From Shigella phage SSP1: DNA of 64,000 nucleotides. The notes beneath the pieces are model-generated. The model ran no database searches, was not told where the DNA came from, and was given only the letters and a program-made list of their open reading frames with translations. Shown piece by piece: positions 30-16,086 of the stretch. The stretch is taken from the sequence record KY963424. The stretch is one strand, 5' to 3'. Every line of letters starts with the position of its first letter. Position 1 is the first letter of the stretch. A program made the translations under genes and the position numbers.

Positions 30-211
30 ATTTAAGGATTAGTATGTTTAAACTCCTAGTAGTTATCTGGTATAGCCAATCAAATAGAGCTAATACCTCT
101 CACGTTATAGACTTTAATACTAAAAATGAAGCTGAAGAAGCATATGCTAATTTAATACAACGTAATAAAGAATCTCGTAGTATAGTTTATGAAGTGACTA
201 AACTTTATTAA
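17..211 (+). CDS. hypothetical small protein (start uncertain, probably internal ATG near 44)
   Basis: ORF in track; 5-prime end overlaps tRNA fragment so annotated start is doubtful. Confidence 0.3.
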   Translation: MPSTNLRISMFKLLVVIWYSQSNRANTSHVIDFNTKNEAEEAYANLIQRNKESRSIVYEVTKLY

Positions 212-219
212 AAATTCAT

Positions 220-248
220 TTGCTTTCTCTCTTATTTATTGTTATAAT
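220..248 (+). promoter_or_regulatory. T5 early-type sigma70 promoter (TTGCTT-N17-TATAAT)
   Basis: -35 TTGCTT 220-225, -10 TATAAT 243-248, 17-bp spacer, conserved leader ATAAATTAATGAGAGGG before ATG 279. Confidence 0.75.
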
Positions 249-278
249 ATTTATATAAATTAATGAGAGGGAAACCAA

Positions 279-572
279 ATGAAACGTTATCTTTCTGTTG
301 TGTTCCAAACTGGTGGTCAACGCTATACCTATGAATTTCCTAGCTCTTGGAAGATCAAAGAAGGTGATCAAGTAGTAGTGTTAACACCGCGTGAGGGTTT
401 CAAGGTAGTAACGGTTAAGCAAGTATTTCCAAAAGATCGTGAACCAGCTAAAGGCATTCGCTATAAGATGATTCATGGTGTAGTTCGTCAAGTACCACGA
501 GCGGAAGTCGAAATCAAAGTAGATAAAGATGGTAAACTTAAATATACCTCTTGCTTAGATGAGTTGCTATAA
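279..572 (+). CDS. hypothetical early protein
   Basis: ORF directly downstream of consensus promoter and RBS-containing leader. Confidence 0.6.
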   Translation: MKRYLSVVFQTGGQRYTYEFPSSWKIKEGDQVVVLTPREGFKVVTVKQVFPKDREPAKGIRYKMIHGVVRQVPRAEVEIKVDKDGKLKYTSCLDELL

Positions 573-778
573 TGAGAATTACTTTCACAGAAAAGATTAT
601 GGGTAATGGTGTTATGATCATTACCGCATGGGATGGTAATCAGTGGTGTAGTGTTTCAGGTATTAAGCCTGAAGAACAAACACTAGAAAATATCTCAAAG
701 ATTAAGCGAAGAATGGCAGAACGTGCACGACTTCCAGGTGCGCCTAGAAATGGTAAACGTTCTGCAATTAAATATTAA
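572..778 (+). CDS. hypothetical early protein
   Basis: ORF overlapping previous stop (ATGA-type coupling). Confidence 0.5.
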   Translation: MRITFTEKIMGNGVMIITAWDGNQWCSVSGIKPEEQTLENISKIKRRMAERARLPGAPRNGKRSAIKY

Positions 779-779
779 T

Positions 780-856
780 GCTTCGGTAGCTTAGCGATCT
801 AAAGCACTCGGCTGATAACCGAGAGATCGGGGGTTTAAATCCCTCCCGGAGTACCA
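780..856 (+). tRNA. tRNA-Ile (anticodon GAU)
   Basis: Cloverleaf by eye: acceptor GCTTCGG/CCGGAGT, anticodon stem CTCGG/CCGAG with loop CTGATAA, T-stem GGGGG/CCCTC, 3-prime CCA. Confidence 0.7.
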
Positions 857-953
857 AATTTAGGAATTAAGACTATGCGTCCAGGAAAGTTTAAAAAAGC
901 TAATTGGTCTAAAGAGTATAAAGAATACTTACTTAGTCTAGTAAAACATAACA

Positions 954-1027
954 GTTAGTTGGCAGAGTGGTTATGCACCTCCCTCATACGGAGCGACTAC
1001 AGTGGTTCAAATCCACTACTAACTACC
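954..1027 (+). tRNA. tRNA with CAU anticodon (Met or lysidine-Ile)
   Basis: Acceptor AGTTAGT/ACTAACT, anticodon loop CTCATAC, T-arm AGTGGTTCAAATCCACT, 3-prime CCA. Confidence 0.65.
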
Positions 1028-1065
1028 ATTAAAATAGCTAGAGATAGCTAAATTTAGGAGCAGCT

Positions 1066-1260
1066 ATGTTAACAATTAAAATAATGTCAGCCAAGAATGG
1101 TGAACATATCCATACGGGCAAAAGCGTAAGCTTTAATCCTAGAAATAAGAGATTGGCTATAGTTGGAGTAGATCAAGCCATCTTTTTAAAAGAAGATGAA
1201 GTAGCATACGTCATGAACCAAACTGGTAAGACAGTTTCCGTATACTATGGAAAAGTATAA
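1066..1260 (+). CDS. hypothetical protein
   Basis: ORF with RBS AGGAG upstream. Confidence 0.5.
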   Translation: MLTIKIMSAKNGEHIHTGKSVSFNPRNKRLAIVGVDQAIFLKEDEVAYVMNQTGKTVSVYYGKV

Positions 1261-1302
1261 AGAATAAAGAGCTGAGCCAAATTCTAACATCGGGGAGATC
1301 TA

Positions 1303-1671
1303 ATGAAAGCATATCAAAATCTTAAATCTGGCGTAATTAACCTTGTTCATGAAAATCAGATTATTCAGCTATACTCCGACAATGGTGAACTTAAACAGAA
1401 AGTTCTAGTCGAAGATCTAGAAGGTATCACACCTCACTTTGACCCTGAGGCCTTTCGCATTGTAGATGTGGAAGTGGTTCCTCAAGTCGAGGGTGGTCAG
1501 CACCTAAATGTCAATGTGTTAAGCCGTGATCAGCTTTTGGATGCACAGAAACATCCTGAAAAATATCCTCAGTTGACCATCCGTGTCTCTGGCTATGCTG
1601 TTCGATTTAACGCATTGACGCGTGAACAACAGAACGACGTTATTAGTCGTACATTTACTCAGGCGATATAA
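1303..1671 (+). CDS. autonomous glycyl-radical cofactor (GrcA/YfiD-like)
   Basis: C-terminus [55 protein letters not shown] closely matches the GrcA/PFL glycyl-radical domain (RVSGY radical glycine motif). Confidence 0.8.
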
Positions 1672-1752
1672 TGGGGTTTGGATACGATTTCTCCCAGCTA
1701 CGCAAGGTAGTCGAGCAAACTCCATTTATCTCCCAAGTTTTAGGAGAAATGT

Positions 1753-2052
1753 GTGGATCGAGCATTAAGACGCCATCACCGGCAACGTGTGAAAAACAAT
1801 CGCAAAAAGTATTGGACAGTCTTCCCACATGAAGAAAGTCCTAAGCGGTTAGGCATTATCACTACCACTCCTTGCATCTGTTCTTGTTGGATGTGTGGGA
1901 ATCCTCGCAAATACTATAAGAATAGTAAAGCAGGTATGAAAATCTCGGAGATTAAAAAGATGGATGCAATGATTATGGGCATCACCTTTACAGGTGGTAT
2001 CTCTGATGAATTCGACGGTTTTGTAACTCAGGATATTGTCGAAATTATCTAA
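1753..2052 (+). CDS. hypothetical Cys-rich protein (GTG start, uncertain)
   Basis: ORF with CxCxC..CxxC cluster; non-ATG start in track. Confidence 0.35.
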   Translation: MDRALRRHHRQRVKNNRKKYWTVFPHEESPKRLGIITTTPCICSCWMCGNPRKYYKNSKAGMKISEIKKMDAMIMGITFTGGISDEFDGFVTQDIVEII

Positions 2053-2061
2053 TTAATAATA

Positions 2062-2098
2062 AACCCCAGCTATTGAATACGTAGTCTGGGGTTTTCTT
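2062..2098 (+). terminator. putative intrinsic terminator
   Basis: Stem AACCCCAG/CTGGGGTT followed by TTTCTT. Confidence 0.5.
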
Positions 2099-2116
2099 GT
2101 ATATAGGATTTTCGAA

Positions 2117-2302
2117 ATGAAAATTTTTAAAGTGAACTATAGCGGCCTGTGGTTAGGTGGTACAGCTATTGTTGTTGCGGAAACTGTGGAAGAAGCAATC
2201 GAACTGGCTAGAAACCATAGAAGTTCTATAGAATTCGAGGATGTGACAGTAGAAGAACTCCCGAGCAGTGGGGTAGTATACAACGACAACGGAGATTACT
2301 GA
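2117..2302 (+). CDS. hypothetical protein
   Basis: ORF with upstream RBS. Confidence 0.45.
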   Translation: MKIFKVNYSGLWLGGTAIVVAETVEEAIELARNHRSSIEFEDVTVEELPSSGVVYNDNGDY

Positions 2303-2360
2303 TGTTATATTTTGAAGTTCGCCCACATTAAGTTAATTTAAAAGACTTAATGGAGGTAAT

Positions 2361-2756
2361 ATGAGCCGTACATATCGTAAACAATCTGGTGATCGTCACT
2401 GGCGTGATGCACATCGTTCTACTTATAATTTTCATAGCACTAATATCCGTATTCCGTATATCTACACGGATAGGGATGGTAAGCAGTGGAAGTATTATCA
2501 AGTTCGATCCAATGAAGCATGGGCTAAAACTTGGGATGAAATTGAGAAGGAGATTCAGGAAAATATCATCCGTAACGAGAAGAAAGATGGGCACTGGTGG
2601 GATTCTGTTAGTAGGAATGTTAAGTGGCATTCTAACAAAATGGTTCGTCAAGGAAACCGTCGCGAACTTCATCGTGTGATGAAAGATCCAGAAAATTACG
2701 ACTATAATCGCGATCATGATCTGCGTAAGCGTGGGTTATGGTGGTGCTACGACTAA
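2361..2756 (+). CDS. hypothetical basic protein
   Basis: ORF with RBS GGAGG; Trp/Arg-rich. Confidence 0.5.
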   Translation: MSRTYRKQSGDRHWRDAHRSTYNFHSTNIRIPYIYTDRDGKQWKYYQVRSNEAWAKTWDEIEKEIQENIIRNEKKDGHWWDSVSRNVKWHSNKMVRQGNRRELHRVMKDPENYDYNRDHDLRKRGLWWCYD

Positions 2757-2832: not shown

Positions 2833-3105
2833 ATGAAAGAAGCAGAAATTAATGAAATGGCTAGAGTATTCATCGTTTCCTATATGCAAGGCAGTTGCAA
2901 TAGTTTATTCGAGTCCGCTGTAGTATTTCAGGAAATGTTAGCCGAAAAAGGCGTACATATGGAAGATACTGAAATTGAAGATCTTCTAATGGAAACTTGT
3001 AGTAGTGCTGAAGTCTTCCAGTGTGGTAACTGTAATTGGTGGTGTCCAGAGCATGATCGTTCTGAAGAAGGTTCCTACTGTTCCGATTGTGAAGGAGAAG
3101 AATAA
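2833..3105 (+). CDS. hypothetical acidic Cys-rich protein
   Basis: ORF downstream of consensus promoter; C-terminal CGNCNWWC..CSDC motif. Confidence 0.55.
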   Translation: MKEAEINEMARVFIVSYMQGSCNSLFESAVVFQEMLAEKGVHMEDTEIEDLLMETCSSAEVFQCGNCNWWCPEHDRSEEGSYCSDCEGEE

Positions 3106-3404
3106 TGAATAAGTTTATTATTGCTCTGGTGATTTCAGCAGTTAGTTTCGGTTCTCTGGCATCTACCAAAGTTTCTATGAAAAATGGTAATGTTAAAGTT
3201 CAACAGAACGGCATTATTACCGAATATGGTAAAGTTCGTGATGTTAAGGAACGTAATGGTAAAGTAGAAATCTATACTAATAAAAACTTCTCTACTCCAG
3301 CCGTTACTATTAGCAAACGCGGTGAAATAACCACTCAACGTACTAATAGCTCCAGTTCTTTTACTTGTCGTTATGATTGCGACTTTGAAGGTGAAGATGA
3401 ATAA
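3105..3404 (+). CDS. putative secreted/periplasmic protein
   Basis: N-terminal signal-peptide-like MNKFIIALVISAVSFGSLAS. Confidence 0.5.
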   Translation: MNKFIIALVISAVSFGSLASTKVSMKNGNVKVQQNGIITEYGKVRDVKERNGKVEIYTNKNFSTPAVTISKRGEITTQRTNSSSSFTCRYDCDFEGEDE

Positions 3405-3792
3405 TTTAGACCCTAGAATTAAATTTGCAATTACAGAAATCCAAGATCAAATTGATGAGGATTTCACTGTTTGGTCAAGGTCTGGTAATGGAGAATATTG
3501 CCAGCTTTATAGTATGAAAATGGGTATCTCAATTGAGCTTAATATCAACTCTGAAGGTAGGGTAGAAGCCCAACCCATGTTCAGTGTTCCAGGCTTCTCT
3601 GGATTTGTTGCAGGTATAAAATTGTGTCTACCAAATAACCATCTTCATCGAGTTATTTGTCAGTTAGAGACTATTAAGCATTTCTTGCCAGAAGGTAACA
3701 TTAATGACTACTACCATGAAGTTGTAGCAGCTCATATGATGAAAGAACGCAAACGTCGGAGAGAAGAACGTGAAAAGACTAAACATCAATAG
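3397..3792 (+). CDS. hypothetical protein
   Basis: ORF; start moved to internal ATG with SD-like GGTGAAG upstream. Confidence 0.45.
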   Translation: MNNLDPRIKFAITEIQDQIDEDFTVWSRSGNGEYCQLYSMKMGISIELNINSEGRVEAQPMFSVPGFSGFVAGIKLCLPNNHLHRVICQLETIKHFLPEGNINDYYHEVVAAHMMKERKRRREEREKTKHQ

Positions 3793-4066
3793 CACAGTGC
3801 AGATTCCAGCAACTAAGGATGTTTTAACATTCCTACGGAGTGAAAACGCTCAGTTTTGGCATGATCATGTTGTAAAGAACGGTAGTACTCCAGATGTAGT
3901 TGCCTTTGCTAAAAAACGTATCGAAGAATATAAAGATCCAGAGATTAAAGATGGGATGATCACTATGCAATTGTGGGTAGCCATGAATACGTTTGGACCT
4001 ACTATGAGTCTAGGAGTTACTCCACTGTTTACTAATATTCTAATTAATGAAAAGGATCTGAAATGA
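3770..4066 (+). CDS. hypothetical protein
   Basis: ORF overlapping neighbours in operon-like array. Confidence 0.45.
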   Translation: MKRLNINSTVQIPATKDVLTFLRSENAQFWHDHVVKNGSTPDVVAFAKKRIEEYKDPEIKDGMITMQLWVAMNTFGPTMSLGVTPLFTNILINEKDLK

Positions 4067-4347
4067 TTATCTCTCCATTTGCTCTTTGGTTCGTCATCGG
4101 ATCTGTGGTTGCTATTTATAGCTTGGTTGATGATCTGTATATTTCTAAGAATAAAGATGTAATATTATACGTTATACATAAAACTCGACCGTTAGACATA
4201 CCACCTCTTGATGATAAAACATTACTCAGATGTGCTAGATCTATGATATTTATTGTGGATATTCTTCTAGGCCCAACATCTGTGTTTTTCTTTTATAGAA
4301 AAACTCGTAATATGAAAAAGTTTAAAGCTGAAATGCGGAATATTTAA
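4063..4347 (+). CDS. hypothetical membrane protein
   Basis: Two hydrophobic segments (LWFVIGSVVAIYSLV; IFIVDILLGPTSVFFFY). Confidence 0.5.
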   Translation: MIISPFALWFVIGSVVAIYSLVDDLYISKNKDVILYVIHKTRPLDIPPLDDKTLLRCARSMIFIVDILLGPTSVFFFYRKTRNMKKFKAEMRNI

Positions 4348-4457
4348 AGAACTCGCGTAGGACCGAGTTGCGTCACCTGCAACTGTTACGGATAAGGGAG
4401 TCGTGCCCCTTAGTGCGGTAAGTGGTGAGGTGGCTGCTAGCCCTAACTGGAGATAAT

Positions 4458-4802
4458 ATGACTATATTACTAATTCTTATTACAACTTGGTTTTTAATCG
4501 GTGCTGGATATGCTATAGCTATTATTAGACATTTGGACGAATACTCTGCTGAATGGTTTGTTAAGTATCTACGTATTGATAATCAAGAACATGAGTTTAA
4601 AGATGAAAAGCAGAAAAAAGCAGTAAATAATATGACAGCCAAAGAATGCTTGTTCTACATGCGTATTGTAGGGTTCTTTGGACTATTAGTTGCTGGCCCA
4701 ATTGGTTCTACCATTGCTCCATATAAAGAAACAGTTGCTGACATCAAATTGTGGAGAAATGCAGGGGTACTACGCAAAGCTAGAGAAACTAATATTATAT
4801 AA
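4458..4802 (+). CDS. hypothetical membrane protein
   Basis: ATG with GGAG RBS; TM segments ILLILITTWFLIGAGYAIAII and IVGFFGLLVAGPIG. Confidence 0.5.
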   Translation: MTILLILITTWFLIGAGYAIAIIRHLDEYSAEWFVKYLRIDNQEHEFKDEKQKKAVNNMTAKECLFYMRIVGFFGLLVAGPIGSTIAPYKETVADIKLWRNAGVLRKARETNII

Positions 4803-4847
4803 GATTGATGCTAAATCAACTTACTAGCAAAAGCAAATAATGACAAA

Positions 4848-4881
4848 GCCCAGCCTGCACTTTTGCGACTGGGCTATTTTT
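4848..4881 (+). terminator. putative intrinsic terminator
   Basis: GCCCAG...CTGGGC stem followed by TATTTTT. Confidence 0.5.
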
Positions 4882-4896
4882 ATAATAAAATTTTAG

Positions 4897-4925
4897 TTGC
4901 TTAGATGCCCAAACTTTTGTATAAT
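4897..4925 (+). promoter_or_regulatory. T5 early-type promoter (TTGCTT-N17-TATAAT)
   Basis: -35 4897-4902, -10 4920-4925, 17-bp spacer. Confidence 0.7.
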
Positions 4926-4956
4926 ATGTTTATAGATTGAGGCAAGAGGATTAAAT

Positions 4957-5637
4957 ATGAAAATCATCTCTAAATTCGTAGATGTGTATGATTTGCAGAA
5001 CAGTTTATTTGACGCAGATCGTGTTTGGGAACGTAAAACTGAAGAGCTAACAATAAAAGCCCCAGATGATGGCAACTATATGATCATGCAAGAACGTAGG
5101 ATTGCTCGTATTGAGGGGAAGATTGGCTACTTTAAAATTTTGCCTTTCTTCCTAGCTGGGGAGATTTACTGGTTATACCACATTGATGTACTGGATACCC
5201 AAGTAAAAACCTTCAGTCTGGACAAGGCGTTAGAAATTTTAGATGAGAAGGGATGGTCAACAGGGTTTTCTTTGCTAGACATAAACAGAGGGAAGCCAAA
5301 AGAGTCGATCTTATCGTGGCAAGAAGAAGTTACCCCGAAAGCTAAAGAAGCCTTATCTGAGCTAAGAGTACCGCTAGCAGTTCTAGATTCATTAGTTCCA
5401 AATGATAAAGATAACAATAAATACTTCAAGATTATAACTAATCCGCGTCTACACCTATCAGGTATTCCGTGGCAGGAAATTGAAAGTAACTTATACCGTT
5501 TACACCAGATGATCGAGCAATATATCTGGGGCGTGTTAGGAACCGGTGAACCAAATACTATTACGATTTCCGATAAGGATCGCTTAGCTGCACATGGATT
5601 TGATACTGTTACTTCTTTTAGGAATATGAAAAGATGA
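4957..5637 (+). CDS. hypothetical protein
   Basis: 226-aa ORF downstream of promoter. Confidence 0.55.
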   Translation: MKIISKFVDVYDLQNSLFDADRVWERKTEELTIKAPDDGNYMIMQERRIARIEGKIGYFKILPFFLAGEIYWLYHIDVLDTQVKTFSLDKALEILDEKGWSTGFSLLDINRGKPKESILSWQEEVTPKAKEALSELRVPLAVLDSLVPNDKDNNKYFKIITNPRLHLSGIPWQEIESNLYRLHQMIEQYIWGVLGTGEPNTITISDKDRLAAHGFDTVTSFRNMKR

Positions 5638-6131
5638 TCAGTAAGGAAGAGCTAAGAAGAATGTTCGATTACCAAGAAGATGGTAATCTTATCTGGAAAC
5701 CCAGGGAAGGGGACGAACATTTTAATAAGATATTCGCCGGAACAGTAGCAGGATCTAGACAAAGTACAGGGCATAGAGTAGTTGAACTATATAATGGTTC
5801 CCTAGCTATAGGGGCGCACAGATTAATCTATGCATGGCATACTGGAGAATGGCCTGAAATAGTTGATCACAAGGACAAAGACCCAACTAATGATAGATTT
5901 GAGAATCTAAGACCTGCTACAAGATCTGATAATGCTTGTAACCAAAAAGTAAGAAGCGATAACCATTTAGGCGTTAAAAATATCCATAGAAAAACAAATG
6001 GGACTTACCAAGTAAGAATTACCAAACATGGTAAGCAAGTTTCGAAAACACTTAAGAGTTTGGAAGAGGCTATAAAATGGCGGGATACCAAACTCAAAGA
6101 ACTCCACGGTGAGTTTGCGAGTACAGGCTAA
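5634..6131 (+). CDS. HNH homing endonuclease with AP2-like DNA-binding region
   Basis: AHRLIYAWHTGEWPEIVDHKDKDPTNDRFENLRPATRSDN HNH_3-type motif; paralog of minus-strand ORF 29527-30024. Confidence 0.75.
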   Translation: MISKEELRRMFDYQEDGNLIWKPREGDEHFNKIFAGTVAGSRQSTGHRVVELYNGSLAIGAHRLIYAWHTGEWPEIVDHKDKDPTNDRFENLRPATRSDNACNQKVRSDNHLGVKNIHRKTNGTYQVRITKHGKQVSKTLKSLEEAIKWRDTKLKELHGEFASTG

Positions 6132-6574
6132 TGCGGAAAGGGTTTGTAGACTTAGTTTGGAATAACAAGATGTATATCCTGGGAGCAGGTCTAGCGATAG
6201 GCATCGGGTTCGGCACTTATCACTTAGTAGATAAAGTGGAGACTTTAGCGGGAGATCTTGCGGTAGCTACTAAAAAGATTTCTTCTCTAGAGATTTCCCT
6301 TAATAAGGTGAAAGCTGAAAGCGAACTTCGTGAGACTAGAATGAATCAGTATTTCACGATGAATAATATTTCTCAAGCAGACTTAGATAAGAAAATTGGT
6401 CAGCTTGATAAAGCACTTAACCGCCAAGATATTATAGCCGCAAAGCCTGGATTGGTAACATTAATTGCTAAAAAGCAGAGTAAGGAGTTCGAGGAAAGAT
6501 TAGCATGTTTAACTGGAAACTTGGAATACTGCTCGCAGCCGCAATCACAATCACAGGCTGTGCACAAGAAATAG
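6131..6574 (+). CDS. candidate i-spanin (inner-membrane spanin)
   Basis: N-terminal TM segment then coiled-coil-like periplasmic domain; 3-prime end overlaps a lipoprotein gene. Confidence 0.45.
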   Translation: MRKGFVDLVWNNKMYILGAGLAIGIGFGTYHLVDKVETLAGDLAVATKKISSLEISLNKVKAESELRETRMNQYFTMNNISQADLDKKIGQLDKALNRQDIIAAKPGLVTLIAKKQSKEFEERLACLTGNLEYCSQPQSQSQAVHKK

Positions 6575-6858
6575 AGTCAGAACCCACACATGAGCTACCA
6601 ACAGCTCATGTAGACTGGCCTAAAGGACTTCAACCTTGTAGCTTTGACTTTAAGTTTGAAAAGAAATTAGCTACAAATGGGGAAGATGGCGTAGTAGTTG
6701 TTGTACCATATAAAGATTGGAATATGTTGGCAAAATGCCGTGAGGCAGAATATTCATATATTTCACGACTGACAAGTATGGTTTGCTTCTATCGCCAAGA
6801 TTTGCAAGAAAAACGTTGTTTAGTATATTATCCACCAATTAACAATAGGAAAGATTAA
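6505..6858 (+). CDS. candidate o-spanin (outer-membrane lipoprotein)
   Basis: Lipobox ITGC after hydrophobic signal; overlapped architecture with upstream TM/coiled-coil gene. Confidence 0.45.
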   Translation: MFNWKLGILLAAAITITGCAQEIESEPTHELPTAHVDWPKGLQPCSFDFKFEKKLATNGEDGVVVVVPYKDWNMLAKCREAEYSYISRLTSMVCFYRQDLQEKRCLVYYPPINNRKD

Positions 6859-7610
6859 TGTCAGTATTAGTCGGTTTACATGGTGAAGCTGGTTCGGGAA
6901 AAGATACCGTTGCAAAATTAATTATCGATTGGTGTAATGACACGTATCCAACGTGTTTTTCTCGTCGTTATAGTTTTGCTAAGCCCGTTTATGAACTTGC
7001 ATCCGTAATCCTCGGTGTAACTCCAGAGTTTCTAGGAGAGCGCAGGGGAAAAGAGATTGACCAATGGTTTACGGTCACACAGTCTCAATTGGAGCGAGCC
7101 AGAGATGTGTGGTTTAAGTACGGTATAGATAAGTTTGAAGACTTCTCGTACGTTTGGCCTATTTTTGAGGAAAAATATCTTAATCCTCAACAACTTATCT
7201 CAGAGAATAAAGAGGACGGACTTTATAGTTTATTTATTTCTCCGAGAAAAATGTTACAGCTCGTAGGAACAGAGCTAGGAAGGCAGCTGGTGCATGAACG
7301 CATTTGGCTCATAATTCTGGAGCAATCCATCGCTAAAGACGACCCAGACGTCGCCGTAATAACAGATGTTAGATTCCCCAATGAAGGAGAGTTACTCAGA
7401 GAAACAAACCATTTAGATATGGATTCTTTGATAGTAAATGTAGTACCAGCTGAGCAGAAGTTCACTATTAAATCAGATCATCCATCTGAAAGTGGTATTC
7501 CTGCAAAATATATTACTCACGAATTAGTTAATAAATTCGATGGTATCAATAACCTTAAACTAGAAGTTTATAACTTCTGTGACTTAGAGCTAGAACCACT
7601 AGTTGGATAA
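6858..7610 (+). CDS. dnk: deoxynucleoside monophosphate kinase
   Basis: P-loop GEAGSGKDT at N-terminus; 250 aa as recalled for T5 dNMP kinase. Confidence 0.7.
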   Translation: MSVLVGLHGEAGSGKDTVAKLIIDWCNDTYPTCFSRRYSFAKPVYELASVILGVTPEFLGERRGKEIDQWFTVTQSQLERARDVWFKYGIDKFEDFSYVWPIFEEKYLNPQQLISENKEDGLYSLFISPRKMLQLVGTELGRQLVHERIWLIILEQSIAKDDPDVAVITDVRFPNEGELLRETNHLDMDSLIVNVVPAEQKFTIKSDHPSESGIPAKYITHELVNKFDGINNLKLEVYNFCDLELEPLVG

Positions 7611-7622
7611 TCAAGGATCGCT

Positions 7623-8204
7623 ATGACTAATAAAAAAGAAAAGACTAACCTGTTTCACTCCATTCGCCAATCTAATGAGTATACCTTTTTCTTTGATGAA
7701 GAATTAGGCCCGCCGGATGAATACCGTGATTTATCAATGGTACTTATGCAAGCAAATGAGGACGACGAAATTAATCTGATGATTAATGGCCCGGGTGGTT
7801 ATGTTGATACTGCTGCACAGTTATCTAACTTAATTGCTAATTGCCGTGGAACAGTTATAGGACATCTGGTTGGTCCTAGTGCTTCTGCTTACTGCACAAT
7901 TTTCCTATCCTGTCATGGGTGGGTAGTACACCCACATGCTACGCTAATGGGACACACGTTCTCTGGCGGATTCTGTGAGAAGGGTCAAGAAATCAAGAAA
8001 GCCTATGAATCTTACAACAAGTTCGTAGAAGATATGATGCTAGATGTCTACTATCCGTTCTTCTCAATAGACGAAATCGACGAGATGGTAAAAGACAATA
8101 AAAATATCTATCTAGATAGCAAAGAAATCCATAAGCGTATTGAAATCTTGGCAAAATATCGATCTGAGCAATATAATAAAGCCCAGTTATCTCGATCAGA
8201 GTAG
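7623..8204 (+). CDS. ClpP-like serine protease (putative)
   Basis: INGPGGYV...GPSASAYC...HPHA resembles ClpP INSPGG / catalytic Ser / His spacing. Confidence 0.45.
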   Translation: MTNKKEKTNLFHSIRQSNEYTFFFDEELGPPDEYRDLSMVLMQANEDDEINLMINGPGGYVDTAAQLSNLIANCRGTVIGHLVGPSASAYCTIFLSCHGWVVHPHATLMGHTFSGGFCEKGQEIKKAYESYNKFVEDMMLDVYYPFFSIDEIDEMVKDNKNIYLDSKEIHKRIEILAKYRSEQYNKAQLSRSE

Positions 8205-8228
8205 CATAATGAAGAGTAAGTAGTTTTA

Positions 8229-8260
8229 AGCCAGGGTTTAACGACCCTGGCTTTTCTTTT
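8229..8260 (+). terminator. intrinsic terminator
   Basis: Stem AGCCAGGG/CCCTGGCT, loop TTTAACGA, then TTTTCTTTT. Confidence 0.7.
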
Positions 8261-8322
8261 ATCTAAAATTCTTCTTGACAACGACAAAATTTTATGCTCC
8301 AAATAAGATCTTTAAAAACACA

Positions 8323-8351
8323 TTGTAATTTTCCTCCAAAATTAGTATAAT
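8323..8351 (+). promoter_or_regulatory. sigma70 promoter (TTGTAA-N17-TATAAT)
   Basis: -35 8323-8328, -10 8346-8351; RBS GAGGAGG 8363-8369. Confidence 0.6.
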
Positions 8352-8375
8352 GGTACTGGTTAGAGGAGGTTACAA

Positions 8376-9032
8376 TTGGAAAAGTTCTTACAATTATTAA
8401 CGGTACTGCTCCAAGAAGCGAAAGATCCAGCATCGCTTCTTAAACGTCTGCTAACTATCTTAGTTGCTGTCATTATTTTCTTATTTGTTAGTAATACTAG
8501 TGAGGTGATGTCATTCTTAAAGACTTTCTCCACGTCTGCGGTTCTACAGGATGTTCAAACTCAAAGGATAAGTAATTTTCCTAACGTAGCTAGAGAAAAG
8601 AGCATGGTGCTTTTTTCCCAAACGGGTGCGGATGCTGTTTTTGTCGTAAAGTATAAACCCGATGCCGTTAATGATTATTCTAACATTATTGCATGGGAAA
8701 GCAATGCGCAATTAGATAGGACTGACTTGGCCGATAAAGCGGTAAATAAAACGTCTGAGCTATATAGACGACACTTAGACGGCTTTAACTACGCATCGGA
8801 CTTAAGTGTAAAAGTAAATAAATACATGGGGTTAAATATACCTGCGTTTAAGAATGTTACTTTTAATTACATATACACTTGTCCGTATTTCAATCTAAAC
8901 AATATCTATGCTGGATATATTGGTATTGCTTGGAAAGATAATCCTGTAGATGCAGCCGATTCTGAGAAATTTAACGAGTACTTAACAAAGCTCTGTTCCC
9001 CACAACAGAGATCTTTAGGTAGATCAATATGA
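8376..9032 (+). CDS. hol: holin (T5-type)
   Basis: 218 aa, N-terminal TM LLKRLLTILVAVIIFLFV, immediately upstream of and coupled to endolysin; TTG start. Confidence 0.7.
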   Translation: MEKFLQLLTVLLQEAKDPASLLKRLLTILVAVIIFLFVSNTSEVMSFLKTFSTSAVLQDVQTQRISNFPNVAREKSMVLFSQTGADAVFVVKYKPDAVNDYSNIIAWESNAQLDRTDLADKAVNKTSELYRRHLDGFNYASDLSVKVNKYMGLNIPAFKNVTFNYIYTCPYFNLNNIYAGYIGIAWKDNPVDAADSEKFNEYLTKLCSPQQRSLGRSI

Positions 9033-9442
9033 GTTTTAAATTTAGTCAAAGAAGTTTAGATAGATTAAAAGGTGTTCATCCAGACTTAGTAAGAGTAACT
9101 CATAGGGCTTTAGAATTAAGCCCGTATGATTTTACGATTACAGAAGGACTTCGTTCTCTAGAGCAAAGTGCTAAGAATATTGCTAATGGAACCTCGTTTT
9201 TAAAAGACCCAAGCAAATCCAAGCATGTTCAAGGTAGGGCGGTAGATTTTGCTCCACTTAAGGATGGAAAGATTGACTGGAATGACCTAGAATCCTTCAA
9301 GTTAGTGGCAGATGCCTTCTTCAAAGCAGCCGAAGAGCTAGGAGTAAAGATTAGATGGGGTGGTGATTGGAACCAAAATGGAAGTTATAAGGATGAAATC
9401 CAACGAGGTACTTTTGACGGACCACACATAGAACTAGTTTAA
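9029..9442 (+). CDS. lys: endolysin, L-alanyl-D-glutamate peptidase (M15 family)
   Basis: 137 aa; ALELSPYDFTITEGLRS..NIANGTSFLKDPSKSKH..DF..DWND matches recalled T5 endolysin. Confidence 0.85.
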   Translation: MSFKFSQRSLDRLKGVHPDLVRVTHRALELSPYDFTITEGLRSLEQSAKNIANGTSFLKDPSKSKHVQGRAVDFAPLKDGKIDWNDLESFKLVADAFFKAAEELGVKIRWGGDWNQNGSYKDEIQRGTFDGPHIELV

Positions 9443-9453
9443 TTAATAACTGA

Positions 9454-9477
9454 GGCGGGAATATTCCCGCCTTTTTA
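9454..9477 (+). terminator. intrinsic terminator
   Basis: Perfect palindrome GGCGGGAAT/ATTCCCGCC followed by TTTTT. Confidence 0.8.
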
Positions 9478-9519
9478 GGCAAAGGGGGCTTTAATAATTT
9501 TTGAAGATAGGAGAAAGCC

Positions 9520-9936
9520 ATGTTTGCAGAACTATTCCTTATGATGCTGCTGGGTATCTGGAAAATAAGTCTAGTAGTATTCGTTTTAATGATAGTCTTT
9601 ACTATCCTTGCATTAACTACCCGAAATAGCTTATTAATAAAGGTTATTCACGGACTAGAGTATATAATTATGGGTTCATTCGGCGTTTGTAAATGCAATT
9701 GCCATAGAGATACGAAATATTGTTGGTTATGGATGGAACTAGAGAATCCTATATCCATAGCTTTGGCTGTTTCATTCGGCATGATTCTTATGGCCCTTAT
9801 TCTAGCATTAATACCTTTGATGTTAGCTGGGGGAGTTACAGCGTATTTCACCCTTTTCTCCCCGATACTTATGTACTCAATTTACCCAATAACTATGTAT
9901 CTAGTTAGGAGAAGATTTATACATGCAGTAGATTAA
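9520..9936 (+). CDS. hypothetical polytopic membrane protein
   Basis: Several hydrophobic segments across 138 aa. Confidence 0.5.
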   Translation: MFAELFLMMLLGIWKISLVVFVLMIVFTILALTTRNSLLIKVIHGLEYIIMGSFGVCKCNCHRDTKYCWLWMELENPISIALAVSFGMILMALILALIPLMLAGGVTAYFTLFSPILMYSIYPITMYLVRRRFIHAVD

Positions 9937-9949
9937 GATAAAAAAGTAG

Positions 9950-9978
9950 TTGACTTTTAGCCCTAGTTATTGTATAAT
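9950..9978 (+). promoter_or_regulatory. T5 early-type promoter (TTGACT-N17-TATAAT)
   Basis: -35 9950-9955, -10 9973-9978, leader ACATAAATTAGTTAAGAGAGG. Confidence 0.75.
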
Positions 9979-10011
9979 ATATACATAAATTAGTTAAGAG
10001 AGGTATATATT

Positions 10012-10443
10012 ATGTCTGATCGTTTCTATACTCAAATGGCGGAACATTTTCGTATACCACATTACGAGCTAAACATTGCACTCCGTGACCATGACTCTCC
10101 TGAGTACAAAAAGCTCGAAAAGAAAGCGGAAAAATCTATTGATACAAAGGTAGGTGCATCTATGTCTAAGGGCAAAAAGTTAACTCGTCTTGATCTTAAT
10201 AAAATTTTAACTGAACTTTTGGGTACTGATATTGAAGGTGCTAAATTACCGCTTCTTGTACTAGAGACTATGATTAAAAAGGTCAAAAATAAAGAATATA
10301 AGAAGGTAGAAGTCCCAGAAGGCAGATTAAAGGCTCCTTATCAGGAAGCATTAACCGAGTGTTTGGGTGTAAATCTTGATCTGAGCACCGCAACAGTAAA
10401 AACCATGAAAAACTTCTTAGAGGCCATTAATAACTATGAGTAA
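10012..10443 (+). CDS. hypothetical protein
   Basis: ORF downstream of consensus promoter. Confidence 0.55.
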   Translation: MSDRFYTQMAEHFRIPHYELNIALRDHDSPEYKKLEKKAEKSIDTKVGASMSKGKKLTRLDLNKILTELLGTDIEGAKLPLLVLETMIKKVKNKEYKKVEVPEGRLKAPYQEALTECLGVNLDLSTATVKTMKNFLEAINNYE

Positions 10444-10726
10444 ATTAGTATATCTATTGAAAGGTTCCACGTGTCGTCCTTGTGCTCTTTTCGAGCCAGT
10501 ATTTGATAAAGTAGTCAGTGACTATAATTTGGAAGTCCACAAAGAGACTGATAATACAGAATTAATGCAGAAATTTGGTGTGCGCCAAGTTCCTGTAGTA
10601 GTTCTGGCAGATCGCTTACCTAATGGTCGAGTAGAAGCTAATCATATTTTGATTGGACGTCAGCTTCGTAAAGAAACTATGCACGAAGCTATTAAAAATT
10701 TCCTGGATGATAATCCAGAGGACTAA
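10436..10726 (+). CDS. thioredoxin/glutaredoxin-like protein
   Basis: CxxC active-site-like CRPC near N-terminus and VPVVV beta-strand typical of thioredoxin fold. Confidence 0.55.
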   Translation: MSKLVYLLKGSTCRPCALFEPVFDKVVSDYNLEVHKETDNTELMQKFGVRQVPVVVLADRLPNGRVEANHILIGRQLRKETMHEAIKNFLDDNPED

Positions 10727-10732
10727 TAAACA

Positions 10733-10765
10733 AAGCCTGATCTTAGCTGATCAGGCTTTTATTTT
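10733..10765 (+). terminator. intrinsic terminator
   Basis: 10-bp stem AAGCCTGATC/GATCAGGCTT then TTTTATTTT. Confidence 0.8.
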
Positions 10766-10767
10766 AC

Positions 10768-10796
10768 TTGCTTTTTGCTAAAAATTTTGGTATAAT
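10768..10796 (+). promoter_or_regulatory. T5 early-type promoter (TTGCTT-N17-TATAAT)
   Basis: -35 10768-10773, -10 10791-10796, leader ATAAATTGATAGGAG. Confidence 0.75.
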
Positions 10797-10824
10797 ACTT
10801 ATATAAATTGATAGGAGTATTACG

Positions 10825-11202
10825 ATGAACTATGCATATCTAATTATTAATAACAATGTAGTTTGTGGTACTCGCGCCGTTGAGATGGGTATTACAGAAG
10901 AAAAGTATAAGTCACTTCCAGAAAAGGAACAACAATATTATGTTGAAGAAGCTGCTTGGGAATATGCTGATGTTTATCCCGAACAACGTGAAGATCGCGT
11001 TACTATTGTTGTTTCTTTGGGGCTGGTTGGCTGTGATACCGAAGTTGATACAGACCTAGAGACTTTAGAAGAGTGGGAAGAATTAGACATTTCAGCTAAA
11101 AACTCTTTAATCCGTGAGGCTTTTTGGGAAGCAGTTGACTGCCATGTTGTCTTCGAGCCTAACGATGAGGAAGCTGAGAAGCATACTAACCAATGGGGAT
11201 AA
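10825..11202 (+). CDS. hypothetical acidic protein
   Basis: ORF downstream of promoter. Confidence 0.55.
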   Translation: MNYAYLIINNNVVCGTRAVEMGITEEKYKSLPEKEQQYYVEEAAWEYADVYPEQREDRVTIVVSLGLVGCDTEVDTDLETLEEWEELDISAKNSLIREAFWEAVDCHVVFEPNDEEAEKHTNQWG

Positions 11203-11206
11203 TTAA

Positions 11207-11452
11207 ATGTTAGCGGAACAAGCAAAACGTTTAGCCAGGATAAATAGAGCTGCACTCCTTAAGAGCAAGAAGAAAACGTATAAGTATATTAAAAAGAGAA
11301 TAGTTTCTTCCGTAGGTATTGGAGGTTCTTTTGTACAGTTTAATCGTGATGAAATTAGTTATGAAGCTATAAAAGCCCTCTATAAAGAGGGCTATACTCT
11401 CCAACTATCTAATGATTATGGCACAACTATTTTAACTGTTATTTGGGAATAA
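11207..11452 (+). CDS. hypothetical protein
   Basis: ORF with basic N-terminus. Confidence 0.45.
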   Translation: MLAEQAKRLARINRAALLKSKKKTYKYIKKRIVSSVGIGGSFVQFNRDEISYEAIKALYKEGYTLQLSNDYGTTILTVIWE

Positions 11453-12306
11453 TTATGAAAAAAGAATTTAACCTGCATGAAATGTTAGTAGTACCAGACG
11501 ATGCTAATCTGTTCTTCGTAGGAGATATTCACGGCTGTAATGATATGCTGGAAGATGCTCTTAAACTAGCAGGATATAAAGAAAAGCGTGACTATGTTGT
11601 CTGTGTTGGTGACTTAATTGACCGAGGCACACAAAACCTACAAGTCTTAGCCAAATTCCTATATAATCCACGTTTTATCAGTGTACGTGGTAATCATGAT
11701 CAATTTATGATTGTGGGAGATTGGGCTAATTGGATGTATAATGGTGGTATGTGGGCCATGAATGAACTAGATGCAGACACCATTAAAAATATTGCCGAAG
11801 ATATGGCTGAAAAAATGCCTCTACTTATGACTGTGCTACATAGAGGGAAAAAATATGGTGTAGCACATGCCGCAGTACCAATTGAATACAAAGAATGTGG
11901 CAATGAAGTAAAAATCCCTAATTGGGACAATCTAGTAGTACAACTAGAACATGCCACAGGTCATGAGTTAGGGGATCTTATGGATGCCTACCTATGGGAT
12001 CGTGATGTTATTCAAGATGTATTTTCCCATATGTCTGAGGATGCAAATCACCCATACTTTAAAAAGTATGCAGGGATGCCGGAAGAACTAATAAACGTAG
12101 TGCCAGAAGTTAAAGGGGTAGATTTCGTGTTTCACGGACATACTGGAGTTCCTTACCCACTTCTTTATAAGAACCGTGTTTATCTTGATACTGGCGGTGT
12201 TTTCAACGGGCAGTTGACGGTTGCGCAAGTTAACGATGAAACTGGCAAAATCACCACATTTACCACAGACAAAAATGATAGCTGCGGTGTACAGAGGATT
12301 CTTTAA
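11443..12306 (+). CDS. Ser/Thr protein phosphatase (metallophosphatase)
   Basis: Motifs GDIHGC, GDLIDRG, GNHD characteristic of PPP-family phosphatases. Confidence 0.8.
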   Translation: MGIIMKKEFNLHEMLVVPDDANLFFVGDIHGCNDMLEDALKLAGYKEKRDYVVCVGDLIDRGTQNLQVLAKFLYNPRFISVRGNHDQFMIVGDWANWMYNGGMWAMNELDADTIKNIAEDMAEKMPLLMTVLHRGKKYGVAHAAVPIEYKECGNEVKIPNWDNLVVQLEHATGHELGDLMDAYLWDRDVIQDVFSHMSEDANHPYFKKYAGMPEELINVVPEVKGVDFVFHGHTGVPYPLLYKNRVYLDTGGVFNGQLTVAQVNDETGKITTFTTDKNDSCGVQRIL

Positions 12307-12827
12307 TGAAAGTTCGCTTTTGGAGTGATCTCCACTTGGGGCATGCAAATATTACTAAATTCAGACCAATCTTCTCTACTATGGAAGAGCATGATGAATT
12401 TATTATGGATACTATTACATCCATGAAAGATAAGCGTACAGTATTCTATATTTTAGGAGACGCATTTGTATCTAGAAATGGTTTGGAGAAGTTCGAAAAA
12501 CTCTTTGGCAATGTTAGAACTACGTTAGTTCTGGGAAACCACGACTTAGAACGAGAAGGATTATCTTTCAAAGACTTAATAGGAGTTGTAGATAACGTAC
12601 AATCACTAGTTAAATATAAAAACTTCTGGCTTTCCCATGCTCCAATACACCCTGGGGAGCTGAGAGGTAAAAAGAACTTACATGGGCATACTCACTTTGA
12701 GTTAATGGGAGATCCTCGTTATATTAACGTTTGTGTCGAGTATGCAAAATCACCAGTACGCCTGGAAGACATCATGGGTGGTAAGTACACTTCGCATGAT
12801 AAAACTAGTTGGATGTTAGATGTCTAA
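12306..12827 (+). CDS. calcineurin-like metallophosphoesterase
   Basis: Motifs DLHLGH, GDAF, GNHD, HGHTH. Confidence 0.7.
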   Translation: MKVRFWSDLHLGHANITKFRPIFSTMEEHDEFIMDTITSMKDKRTVFYILGDAFVSRNGLEKFEKLFGNVRTTLVLGNHDLEREGLSFKDLIGVVDNVQSLVKYKNFWLSHAPIHPGELRGKKNLHGHTHFELMGDPRYINVCVEYAKSPVRLEDIMGGKYTSHDKTSWMLDV

Positions 12828-12935
12828 GTATATAGCTGAGGCTATTATTAAACGAATCATACAAGCGATAGCGATACTTATAATCATTTGTATTGCTATT
12901 GGTACGGGATTAGGCATTTTAATTAAAAGTTTTAT

Positions 12936-12964
12936 TTGCTAAAATGCTTAAGTTTCTGTATAAT
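12936..12964 (+). promoter_or_regulatory. T5 early-type promoter (TTGCTA-N17-TATAAT)
   Basis: -35 12936-12941, -10 12959-12964, leader ATAAATTGATGAGAAGG. Confidence 0.75.
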
Positions 12965-12994
12965 TACTTTATAAATTGATGAGAAGGAATCAAA

Positions 12995-13426
12995 ATGAAC
13001 AAAGTTGATAAAGCTCTAGTTTTCGCAGCAGCAGATAAGTTTGAACAAGTTAAGGCAACTTTCCGAACCTTGTTCCAGTCTTACGTTCAGGATAAGTCTA
13101 ATCCTATCTCTGAACGTTTGATGGTCTGGGAATGTCATGCTTGCAATGCCCTATTAATTGCGGATTATCGTAGCGATATAGATAAAAATCTGTGCGAAAT
13201 TCTTATCCCTGAGGAGGCAGAACGTTATCAGTTAATCTCTTTCCAAGATTTGGCGGAGCATATCATTCCTGATGATCTTTGGGATAAATACTACGGTGAT
13301 CCTGAAGATGAGGGAATGACTCCAGAAGCCTGTATTGAGCTGATCTGCAAAGATCATCCTGAAATTGCAGAGAAATTTGAAAAAGTTTTTGCTTCTGAGT
13401 TCTCCGGCGTTGTTAACGATTGGTAA
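12995..13426 (+). CDS. hypothetical acidic protein
   Basis: ORF downstream of promoter. Confidence 0.55.
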   Translation: MNKVDKALVFAAADKFEQVKATFRTLFQSYVQDKSNPISERLMVWECHACNALLIADYRSDIDKNLCEILIPEEAERYQLISFQDLAEHIIPDDLWDKYYGDPEDEGMTPEACIELICKDHPEIAEKFEKVFASEFSGVVNDW

Positions 13427-13443
13427 GTACTTAAAAAATTCAG

Positions 13444-13472
13444 TTGCTTTAAGCCTTAAAATTCTGTATAAT
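13444..13472 (+). promoter_or_regulatory. T5 early-type promoter (TTGCTT-N17-TATAAT)
   Basis: -35 13444-13449, -10 13467-13472, leader CATAAATTAATGAGAGAGG. Confidence 0.75.
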
Positions 13473-13504
13473 AAGTTCATAAATTAATGAGAGAGGAAAT
13501 TCTA

Positions 13505-13756
13505 ATGGAAAACATGACTAAAAATGAAATGGCTAACGTTCTGGCAATTCTCCTCGATATGCAAGGATTTGAGGGGCAACTGATGAAAATGTCTATTCCG
13601 GCAATGAAAAAGATGTATGATTCCCTGAATAAGAATGCTATGGCGTTCAACCTTGCAAAACAGGAAGCACGTTTTGCGAAAGAGCATCAGGCAACTGCCG
13701 AACGCCGTGCAGCATCCTTTGAGCGTGAAGTTAAGCAACTGAAAGGTAAGAAATAA
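13505..13756 (+). CDS. hypothetical protein
   Basis: Track ORF starts at ATG inside the conserved promoter leader; real start more likely ATG 13505. Confidence 0.5.
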   Translation: MENMTKNEMANVLAILLDMQGFEGQLMKMSIPAMKKMYDSLNKNAMAFNLAKQEARFAKEHQATAERRAASFEREVKQLKGKK

Positions 13757-13917
13757 TGGAGAATAAACTAGCATTAGTAGCAATAATGGTAGTTTTCCAA
13801 GCGATATTTTTGGGACTTATCCACAATAAAGTTTCTAAACTAGAAAACTCAGCAAAAGAACTGAAAGTAGAAATGTGTAAATTAGTCCCGGATAACGAAA
13901 AATGTAGGGGTATTTAA
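13756..13917 (+). CDS. small hydrophobic protein (53 aa)
   Basis: TAATG-coupled to both neighbours; TM segment LALVAIMVVFQAIFLGLI; below ORF-track length cutoff. Confidence 0.4.
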   Translation: MENKLALVAIMVVFQAIFLGLIHNKVSKLENSAKELKVEMCKLVPDNEKCRGI

Positions 13918-14198
13918 TGTTAATTGAAATTCTCATCGGATTGCTAGTGCTTATGACACTAGCAGCGATTGGTGGGGTTATTGGTATTGTAAGCCTACGA
14001 AAAAATATGGAGAGTATGCTTATTACTAATAGTGGACTCCACTGCCGCTTAATAGGACAAGAACAAGATATTGAACTAGCTCAGAGACGCTCAGATATTC
14101 TAAAAGAAAAACTAAACAATATCGAAGCAATTGCTGGGAATACAAAACTACCTAATAAAGTAATGCGTGCACAGATAATTACGGAGATTAAAAAATGA
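13917..14198 (+). CDS. hypothetical membrane protein
   Basis: N-terminal TM segment MLIEILIGLLVLMTLAAIGGVIGIV. Confidence 0.5.
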   Translation: MLIEILIGLLVLMTLAAIGGVIGIVSLRKNMESMLITNSGLHCRLIGQEQDIELAQRRSDILKEKLNNIEAIAGNTKLPNKVMRAQIITEIKK

Positions 14199-14440
14199 TG
14201 ATGTTTATTCTAGCGTTTTATCTAATTGTGGTTAGTGTACTGGTTACTAAATACCACACATGGACGCCAAAGAATGTTGTTAAGGTAGCCTTATTTGTTA
14301 TTCCAGTTCCACTTATTATCTTTTCTATGTTACTGGTGATGTTAGTTGGTAAAATAACAAAAACTGATATTAAACGTATTGCTTATGAATTGCAACAGTC
14401 TTGTGATATGGTAGAGGATATTCTTAAAGATGAAGCTTAA
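14195..14440 (+). CDS. hypothetical membrane protein
   Basis: Two hydrophobic segments; overlapping stop/start with neighbours. Confidence 0.5.
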   Translation: MMMFILAFYLIVVSVLVTKYHTWTPKNVVKVALFVIPVPLIIFSMLLVMLVGKITKTDIKRIAYELQQSCDMVEDILKDEA

Positions 14441-14756: not shown

Positions 14757-14855
14757 TTGATTTAGTACCAATTACTGCGGGGCTACTAGCACTATTAGTG
14801 CTCGCAGTTTTTATTATTGTGGAGCAGGCCAAAGTAATAAGGAGACTTAAAAACA

Positions 14856-15833: not shown

Positions 15834-15840
15834 TTTTAGA

Positions 15841-15868: not shown

Positions 15869-15887
15869 GTGTTTCAAGGAATATAAT

Positions 15888-16085: not shown

Positions 16086-16086
16086 T

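Follow-up and report, generated by a model that had tools for sequence, protein, structure and literature searches.

Overlapping genes for a predicted two-component spanin, set apart from holin and endolysin, in the T5-like Shigella phage SSP1

The stretch of DNA analyzed here, further referred to as the window, comprises 64,000 nucleotides of Shigella phage SSP1 (sequence record KY963424). Between positions 6131 and 6858 it contains two overlapping open reading frames, both located on the plus strand and exactly where an earlier reading of the letters alone (the sequence-only reading) had placed them. The first encodes a membrane protein and the second a lipoprotein, which are very probably the two subunits, i-spanin and o-spanin, of a spanin. 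The elements of the locus and its surroundings, named after their predicted products, are as follows.

5634-6131: HNH homing endonuclease gene, upstream of the i-spanin gene (PF13392, E 9.7e-14)
6131-6574, plus strand: i-spanin gene, 147 amino acids, homologous to T5.045 and T4 PseT.3 (open reading frame call and PHROG 739)
6170-6229, plus strand: transmembrane segment near the N-terminus of the i-spanin, approximately residues 14-33, with a predicted N-in/C-out orientation
6236-6310, plus strand: heptad-repeat (coiled-coil-like) part of the periplasmic helix α1 of the i-spanin, residues 36-60
6505-6574, plus strand: dual-coding overlap of 70 nt, encoding the i-spanin tail and the o-spanin signal peptide
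6505-6858, plus strand: o-spanin gene, precursor of 117 amino acids and mature lipoprotein of 99 amino acids, homologous to T5.044 and T4 PseT.2
6550-6561, plus strand: lipobox I-T-G-C of the o-spanin, residues 16-19 (regular expression and sequence)
6858-7610, plus strand: dNMP kinase gene, dnk (PF21448, E 1.6e-11)
7623-8204, plus strand: ClpP-like protease gene, homologous to T5.042 (PF00574, E 3.9e-8; PHROG 1827, E 5.5e-88)
8228-8253, plus strand: strong hairpin resembling an intrinsic terminator, with a stem of 11 bp followed by a T run, at the end of the spanin-containing unit
8323-8351, plus strand: promoter-like site TTGTAA-17-TATAAT, 5′ of the holin gene
8376-9032, plus strand: holin gene, 218 amino acids, T4 T-holin family (PF11031, E 1.8e-112; PHROG 860)
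9029-9442, plus strand: endolysin gene, 137 amino acids, M15 peptidase homologous to T5 lys (PF13539, E 1.6e-8; PHROG 465)

The i-spanin had been described in the sequence-only reading as a protein with a transmembrane segment and a coiled coil, and both elements can be recognized. Residues 15-33 (YILGAGLAIGIGFGTYHLV) are the most hydrophobic 19-mer on the Kyte-Doolittle scale and constitute the sole hydrophobic segment of the protein. The flanks of this segment carry a net charge of +2 on the N-terminal and of -1 on the C-terminal side, which is consistent with the positive-inside rule and with a bitopic protein having its N-terminus inside and its C-terminus outside. Further on, in residues 36-60, leucine, isoleucine, valine or methionine occupies seven of the eight a/d core positions of a heptad pattern, a score reached by 29 of the 2000 shuffled sequences. 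AlphaFold2 predicts two helices, spanning residues 2-102 and 106-127, with low confidence (pLDDT 58), and the break between them falls exactly at the linker AAKPG. The alignment indicates that the linker between both helices, with AxKPGLV as its pattern, is kept as far as phage T4. Two cysteines, C126 and C134, are present near the C-terminus and are conserved within the T5 family. Judged from its sequence, the protein contains a single membrane helix near the N-terminus, and its C-terminal part, mostly α-helical, is predicted to reside in the periplasm. A profile search of the PDB with the i-spanin returned weak matches only, all of them to coiled coils. The protein also gave a match of 19.9 bits to the NCBIfam family FtsL, for which the cut-off is 50. 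This assignment was rejected, since the match reflects only a common layout, in which a coiled coil comes after a membrane helix.

The o-spanin is encoded in a different frame, as its start lies two bases (modulo 3) downstream of the frame of the i-spanin, and its ATG is preceded by a Shine–Dalgarno-like motif, GAGGAAAG. The precursor has MFNWKLGILLAAAITITGC as its N-terminus. The signal, MFNWKLGILLAAAITITG, is followed by C-A-Q, which puts Cys19 at +1 and Ala20, and not an aspartate, at +2. The sequence-only reading had called this protein a lipoprotein with lipobox ITGC, encoded by a gene overlapping the first one. This call stands, as ITGC occupies residues 16-19 of the precursor, which by its sequence carries a signal for signal peptidase II. 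The alanine at +2 fits a predicted sorting to the outer membrane. Besides the signal peptide, no second hydrophobic segment is present in the o-spanin sequence. A unimolecular spanin, of the type of T1 gp11, was considered as well and rejected, as the membrane anchor is located on a separate protein from the lipoprotein.

In its mature part, the o-spanin contains four cysteines, C45, C78, C94 and C105, all of which are kept within the T5 family. Four periplasmic cysteines is also the published maximum for an o-spanin (PMC6139136). An alignment was made of nine o-spanin sequences, i.e., those from the window, T5, Seafire, a Klebsiella phage, Erwinia phage KEY and T4, together with three metagenomic proteins. 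It contains 15 invariant columns, including the lipobox cysteine and the C-terminal cysteine pair that is shared with T4 PseT.2. No variation occurs, T4 included, at G18, C19, H35, W38, P39, C94, Y96, R97, L100, E102 and C105, and the residue at +2 after the lipobox cysteine is Ala or Ser in all nine homologs. AlphaFold2 proposes a rough strand-helix-strand core for the o-spanin (pLDDT 51). As for the i-spanin (pLDDT 58), this model was built on a shallow alignment, and secondary structure alone was used from both models.

The relationship to known spanins is provided mainly by phage T4. The i-spanin matches PHROG 739 with an E-value of 1.7e-35 and the o-spanin matches PHROG 812 with an E-value of 6.3e-30. 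Both families are labeled 'Rz-like spanin', and the T4 proteins PseT.3 and PseT.2 fall into the same two families (E 1.3e-37 and 3.5e-43, respectively). A direct comparison by BLASTP gives 28% identity between the i-spanin and PseT.3 (E 5e-6) and likewise 28% between the o-spanin and PseT.2 (E 1e-7), an identity that covers most of the length in each pair. The o-spanins of T4 and of the window have the motifs H-x-x-WP and, at the C-terminus, C-x-YR-x-x-L-x-E-x-x-C in common. Within the latter, C94 and C105 align with C87 and C98 of PseT.2 and are invariant; both cysteines of PseT.2 are essential (Kongari et al., 2018; PMC6139136). The same study describes two periplasmic helices in PseT.3, which matches the AlphaFold2 helices and the AAKPG linker of the i-spanin, and it showed that pseT.3/pseT.2 complement the lysis defect of lambda RzamRz1am (PMC6139136). 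The spanin identity of the pair, as proposed in the sequence-only reading, is thus backed by homology to experimentally validated proteins as well as to T5.045 and T5.044.

There are also differences with T4. PseT.3 is devoid of cysteines, whereas the i-spanins of the T5 family have the conserved C126 and C134. Compared to PseT.2, the o-spanins of the T5 family have two extra conserved cysteines, C45 and C78, and a longer C-terminus. The T4 spanin genes, which are not located near t and e, are classed as 'separated' (PMC6139136); they merely abut, in contrast to the genes of the window with their overlap of 70 nt. A T-type holin and a lack of linkage between spanin and holin genes are common to both phages. 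However, holin, endolysin and spanins are all dispersed in T4, while in the window the holin gene is next to the endolysin gene, with the spanins at a distance of only 1.5 kb.

Other family and structure resources contribute little. Scans of both spanins against Pfam and NCBIfam gave no family at threshold. Homologs bear a precomputed PF26831 label, but a Pfam search with the spanins of the window gave no match even at E-values up to 10. A profile search of the PDB with the spanin family profiles found no solved spanin or relative, with coiled-coil noise as the only result.

The closest relatives of the locus are found in Salmonella phage SPC35 (NC_015269; Tequintavirus, Demerecviridae) and in phage T5. 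Bases 5600-9500 of the window are 100.0% identical to SPC35 and 92% identical to T5. Taken as a whole, the window is very close to the SPC35 record but mosaic, with 99.6% identity over 3105-15881 and 90-97% elsewhere (BLAST). It was also observed that the window passes through the first-step-transfer/terminal-repeat region straight to late structural genes at approximately 29.5 kb. With only few substitutions, the i-spanin is 94% identical to T5.045 and the o-spanin 98% identical to T5.044. The lengths of the T5 proteins (147 and 117 amino acids), the 70-nt overlap and the neighbors, i.e., hegF upstream and dnk, the ClpP-like gene, holin and lys downstream, are the same as in the window. Both T5.045 and T5.044 are annotated as 'Rz-like spanin' in the T5 RefSeq record, with depositor notes on their similarity to T4 PseT. 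In the SPC35 RefSeq record NC_015269, the i-spanin is annotated as 'Rz-like spanin' too, and there is no CDS where the o-spanin lies. The CDS is missing from the SPC35 GenBank record as well, although the gene itself is present. SPC35 is named in the census of Kongari et al. (2018) as a member of both the T5 i-spanin and the T5 o-spanin family ('T5, EPS7, Stitch, SPC35, ...'). There it is placed in the overlapped class, with an overlap of 70 bp for the T5 spanins (PMC6139136).

Conservation extends well beyond these close relatives. Among the 552 phage records with tblastn matches to the o-spanin, 547 contain a full-length match, with identities down to 38-45%. The hosts of these phages include Salmonella, Escherichia, Klebsiella, Citrobacter, Proteus, Pectobacterium, Providencia and Erwinia, and a single T4-like phage, of Citrobacter, was matched with 29% identity. 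Seafire, Klebsiella phage vB_Kpn_K7_rec3 and Erwinia phage KEY, the latter two showing approximately 40-45% identity, share with the window the gene order i-spanin/o-spanin, dnk, ClpP-like, holin, endolysin. This indicates that the split layout is old and stable and not peculiar to the genome of the window. A variant is found in the phages Shivani and phiR201 and in NR01-like phages. These encode homologous proteins, and their i-spanins retain ACL(T/S)G..EYC as in the window, but a GIY-YIG homing endonuclease gene of approximately 700 bp separates the two spanin genes. The insertion shortens the i-spanin to 141 amino acids and alters the o-spanin's signal sequence. No such insertion interrupts the overlapped genes of the window. 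For Shivani and phiR201, this arrangement with a GIY-YIG gene between the spanin genes has been described before (PMC6139136).

Within the overlap, two protein segments are encoded at once. In the frame of the i-spanin, the 70 nt code for the C-terminal tail from Cys126 to Lys147, including Cys134. The ATG of the o-spanin (6505-6507) straddles the i-spanin codons Ala125 and Cys126 in an arrangement xxA|TGy that was seen in the window, T5, Seafire (with a GTG start), Klebsiella phage vB_Kpn_K7_rec3 and Erwinia phage KEY, i.e., in all five genomes inspected. In each of them, the last two bases of the o-spanin ATG or GTG come from the conserved cysteine codon (TGy) of the i-spanin. The length of the overlap varies from 40 to 88 nt across these five genomes, because the tail of the i-spanin differs between them.

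Toward both sides, the pair is tightly packed against its neighbors. The stop codon of the HNH endonuclease gene overlaps the i-spanin gene's start (TAATG), and the ATG of dnk overlaps the stop codon of the o-spanin gene in the same way (TAATG). These overlaps suggest translational coupling of the pair with the upstream HNH gene and with dnk. The start of the holin gene (8376) lies 1517 nt from the stop of the o-spanin gene (6858). This agrees with the sequence-only reading, in which approximately 1.5 kb with a dNMP kinase and a ClpP-like gene had been noticed between the spanins and the holin, and in which the lysis functions had been called split. The split is supported by the terminator-like hairpin and the promoter-like site listed above, by which the spanins are assigned to one predicted transcription unit and the holin-endolysin pair to another; the T5 annotation has a terminator and a promoter at the equivalent positions. 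Rfam and tRNA scans revealed no RNA elements in or near the spanin pair. Open reading frames on the minus strand around the pair are at most 55 amino acids long, and no support was found for any of them.

In phage lambda, Rz and Rz1 form part of the lysis cassette, where they immediately follow S and R. The proteins of lambda and of the window are of the same class and topology. In both phages, the product of the first gene is a type II protein of the inner membrane whose periplasmic domain is helical, the outer-membrane lipoprotein is read from another frame at this gene's 3′ end, and periplasmic cysteines occur in both subunits. No sequence similarity to Rz/Rz1 was detected, however, and the PHROG search matched 739 and 812 only. 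Moreover, Rz1 is short, proline-rich and fully embedded in Rz, while the mature o-spanin of the window counts 99 amino acids and is not proline-rich. Mechanistic details established for lambda may therefore not transfer to such a large o-spanin that is not rich in prolines.

Altogether, the overlapping genes can be assigned with high confidence, on the strength of sequence comparisons, to a two-component spanin of a T5-like phage from the SPC35 lineage. Features that define such spanins are found together in the pair, i.e., the topology of the i-spanin, its helical and coiled-coil propensity, the lipobox of the o-spanin, the adjacency of both genes and the cysteines in the predicted periplasmic parts. 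Homology combined with the overlapped architecture places the pair in the T5 spanin family as delineated by Kongari et al. (2018). The matches to PHROG 739 and 812, together with the two conserved C-terminal cysteines of the o-spanin, place it in a superfamily with T4 PseT.3/PseT.2.

A working mechanism can be proposed by extension from lambda and T4. The o-spanin would receive its lipid on Cys19 and be directed to the outer membrane, into its inner leaflet. The C-terminal parts of both subunits would bind each other in a complex that spans the periplasm. Disulfide bonds via Cys94 and Cys105 of the o-spanin would stabilize this complex, to which Cys126 and Cys134 of the i-spanin, specific for the T5 family, would probably contribute as well. 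As long as the peptidoglycan mesh cages them, the complexes are expected to build up without harm. After release of the endolysin (9029-9442) by the holin (8376-9032) and breakdown of the wall, they would fuse or disrupt the outer membrane, which would complete lysis. Since spanins would in this scheme be inert until the wall is gone, linkage to or co-regulation with the holin-endolysin pair would not be needed. This would explain the place of the spanin genes in an upstream unit as well as the full dispersal in T4.

The spanin could also be a genuine homolog that is dispensable to the phage, in which case the outer membrane would be broken by osmotic or shear forces or by a disruptin-like peptide, and selection on the pair would be weak. 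Defects in the lambda spanin are masked in shaken cultures to which no divalent cations are added. In addition, no data on the essentiality of the T5 spanin were found in the searchable literature, nor any experiments on a spanin of the T5 family, T5.044 and T5.045 included, be it by CRISPRi-ART, HIDEN-SEQ, phage Tn-seq or otherwise. Nevertheless, strong conservation in hundreds of genomes, down to approximately 40% identity, is seen for both proteins as well as for their cysteines and the dual-coding overlap. Such conservation of both frames argues for purifying selection and against a dispensable relic, which makes this explanation very improbable.

A role outside lysis is equally improbable. 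The lipoprotein would then act in receptor masking or superinfection exclusion, like Llp of T5 or the Cor proteins of phages, and the membrane protein would be unrelated to it. T5-like phages do encode a small receptor-blocking lipoprotein, Llp (PMC4342426), and the pair is located in the early region among genes for nucleotide metabolism instead of beside the holin gene. However, both proteins are homologous to PseT.3 and PseT.2, which replace Rz/Rz1 in lambda. Moreover, a blocker specific for one receptor would not be expected in phages of Klebsiella, Erwinia, Salmonella and Escherichia, whose receptors presumably differ, yet the pair is kept in all of these. The strictly conserved association of the lipoprotein with a membrane protein that is bitopic and helical is, in itself, a spanin signature. 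That 6505-6858 is a chance open reading frame in an alternative frame, with the membrane protein alone being real, is excluded by conservation: although both SPC35 records lack the CDS and a large protein database holds only five o-spanin clusters versus 64 i-spanin clusters, the frame is intact in nearly all records that match it, including the relatives at 38-45% identity, its product has the 15 invariant columns and the PHROG 812 match, its ATG has the Shine–Dalgarno-like motif 5′ of it, and so few clusters are in line with overlapped o-spanins being under-called (PMC6139136).

The two-component spanin is a correct but ordinary finding, of little discovery value. The pair, its overlap, its distance from holin and endolysin and its kinship to T4 are already contained in the T5 annotation and in the 2018 census, in which SPC35 is named. 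The practical value lies in the correction of annotations. In the census, 196 o-spanin genes were found to lack an annotation (PMC6139136), an under-annotation that fits both the five versus 64 clusters and the CDS missing from SPC35. In many records of T5-like phages, the o-spanin is unannotated or listed as 'hypothetical protein', and at least one record truncates it: that of Klebsiella phage vB_Kpn_K7_rec3, in which the o-spanin is annotated as a version of 51 amino acids. Spanin-aware gene calling would recover the missing o-spanin CDS.

The sole part with residual novelty, which is speculative, is the cysteine pattern and the disulfide scheme that may follow from it. It is possible, though rather doubtful, that the T5 family uses a disulfide scheme different from those of lambda and T4, with the dual-coded segment as a constrained module. 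Within such a module, covalent dimerization of the i-spanin, or a heterotypic link between i-spanin and o-spanin, could have co-evolved with translation initiation of the o-spanin. As a second model, the T5 family would conveniently complement T4 in the study of cysteine patterns and of o-spanin folds that differ from the one in lambda. Small additions from the present analysis are the absence of the o-spanin CDS from the SPC35 RefSeq record and the two bases that the o-spanin start codon and the i-spanin cysteine codon have in common.

The membrane lysis genes of the window resemble those of T4 in both of their components. The holin gene (8376-9032) encodes a T-holin (PF11031, E 1.8e-112), and the spanin genes (6131-6858) are of the type of PseT.3/PseT.2, the T4 spanins. 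The endolysin of this siphovirus, in contrast, is unrelated to T4 lysozyme. Because both membrane components are T4-type, their sequences suggest that the holin and spanin genes either share an ancestry common to Demerecviridae and Straboviridae or have been exchanged between these families.

In Erwinia phage KEY, the holin gene is followed by a gene for a 165-aa 'putative lysozyme' (6492-6989 of the KEY sequence), whereas the window encodes a 137-aa M15 peptidase (9029-9442) at that place. The holin and spanins are kept in KEY despite the different endolysin, and the endolysin module thus appears, from this comparison, to have been swapped in a lysis region that is otherwise conserved. In the window, the endolysin gene is directly followed by a further gene:

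9520-9936, + strand: gene for a 138-aa protein, homologue of T5.039 (PHROG 5944, no function assigned)

The T5 record ascribes four transmembrane domains to T5.039 and has a terminator annotated at the spot equivalent to this neighborhood. The position of the gene next to the lysis genes raises the question whether its product modulates lysis.

At its upstream end, the spanin locus is bordered by a homing endonuclease gene, as the i-spanin gene's start adjoins, through a TAATG junction, the following gene:

5634-6131, + strand: HNH homing endonuclease gene (PF13392), homologue of T5 hegF / F-TflVI

In the record of the relative Seafire, no endonuclease gene is annotated upstream of the i-spanin gene, and the i-spanin N-terminus differs, reading MDLIQKLLSGIWQGKW... 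in Seafire vs MRKGFVDLVWNNKM... in the window. Moreover, a GIY-YIG insertion between the spanin genes has been described for Shivani and phiR201 (PMC6139136). Taken together, the HNH gene, the N-terminal difference and this published insertion give the spanin locus the look of a site where homing endonucleases land repeatedly.

The dNMP kinase gene dnk contains a motif known from T5, approximately 180 nt downstream from where the o-spanin gene stops:

7039-7043, inside dnk: A|GCGC, T5-type nick-site motif, assigned by an offset from the dnk start equal to that of the T5 site

At the equal dnk offset, T5 is annotated with a 'major DNA single-chain interruption' of consensus Pu-pGCGC. Given this shared offset, the predicted T5-type nick-site motif is conserved in the window dnk.

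In many T5-like records, the o-spanin region is empty or labeled 'hypothetical protein'. Both the RefSeq and GenBank records of Salmonella phage SPC35 are without an o-spanin CDS (window 6505-6858 compared with NC_015269 22434-22718). For the o-spanin, the record of Klebsiella phage vB_Kpn_K7_rec3 has just a truncated 51-aa 'Rz-like spanin' (4175-4330), while the full lipoprotein ORF begins at 4001 (4001-4330). Besides these gaps, one label stands out in the early region:

11207-11452, + strand: 81-aa ORF, labeled 'major head protein' in SPC35 and T5 RefSeq and also in PHROG 7354

This is probably a propagated mislabel, since a capsid protein would be far larger and would be encoded in another region.

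Finally, the window and the linear SPC35 record are not collinear (window ~19295-29471 and onward). The window passes through the first-step-transfer/terminal-repeat region, reaching SPC35 position 3 at ~29471, beyond which late structural genes follow, namely those for terminase, portal, head and tail. Patches of the window (208-2394, 16086-17839 and 24687-29471) fall to 90-97% identity to SPC35. Given the non-collinearity and the run through the terminal-repeat region into late genes, the source of the window looks like a mosaic relative of SPC35 whose assembly has been circularized or has had its repeats collapsed.
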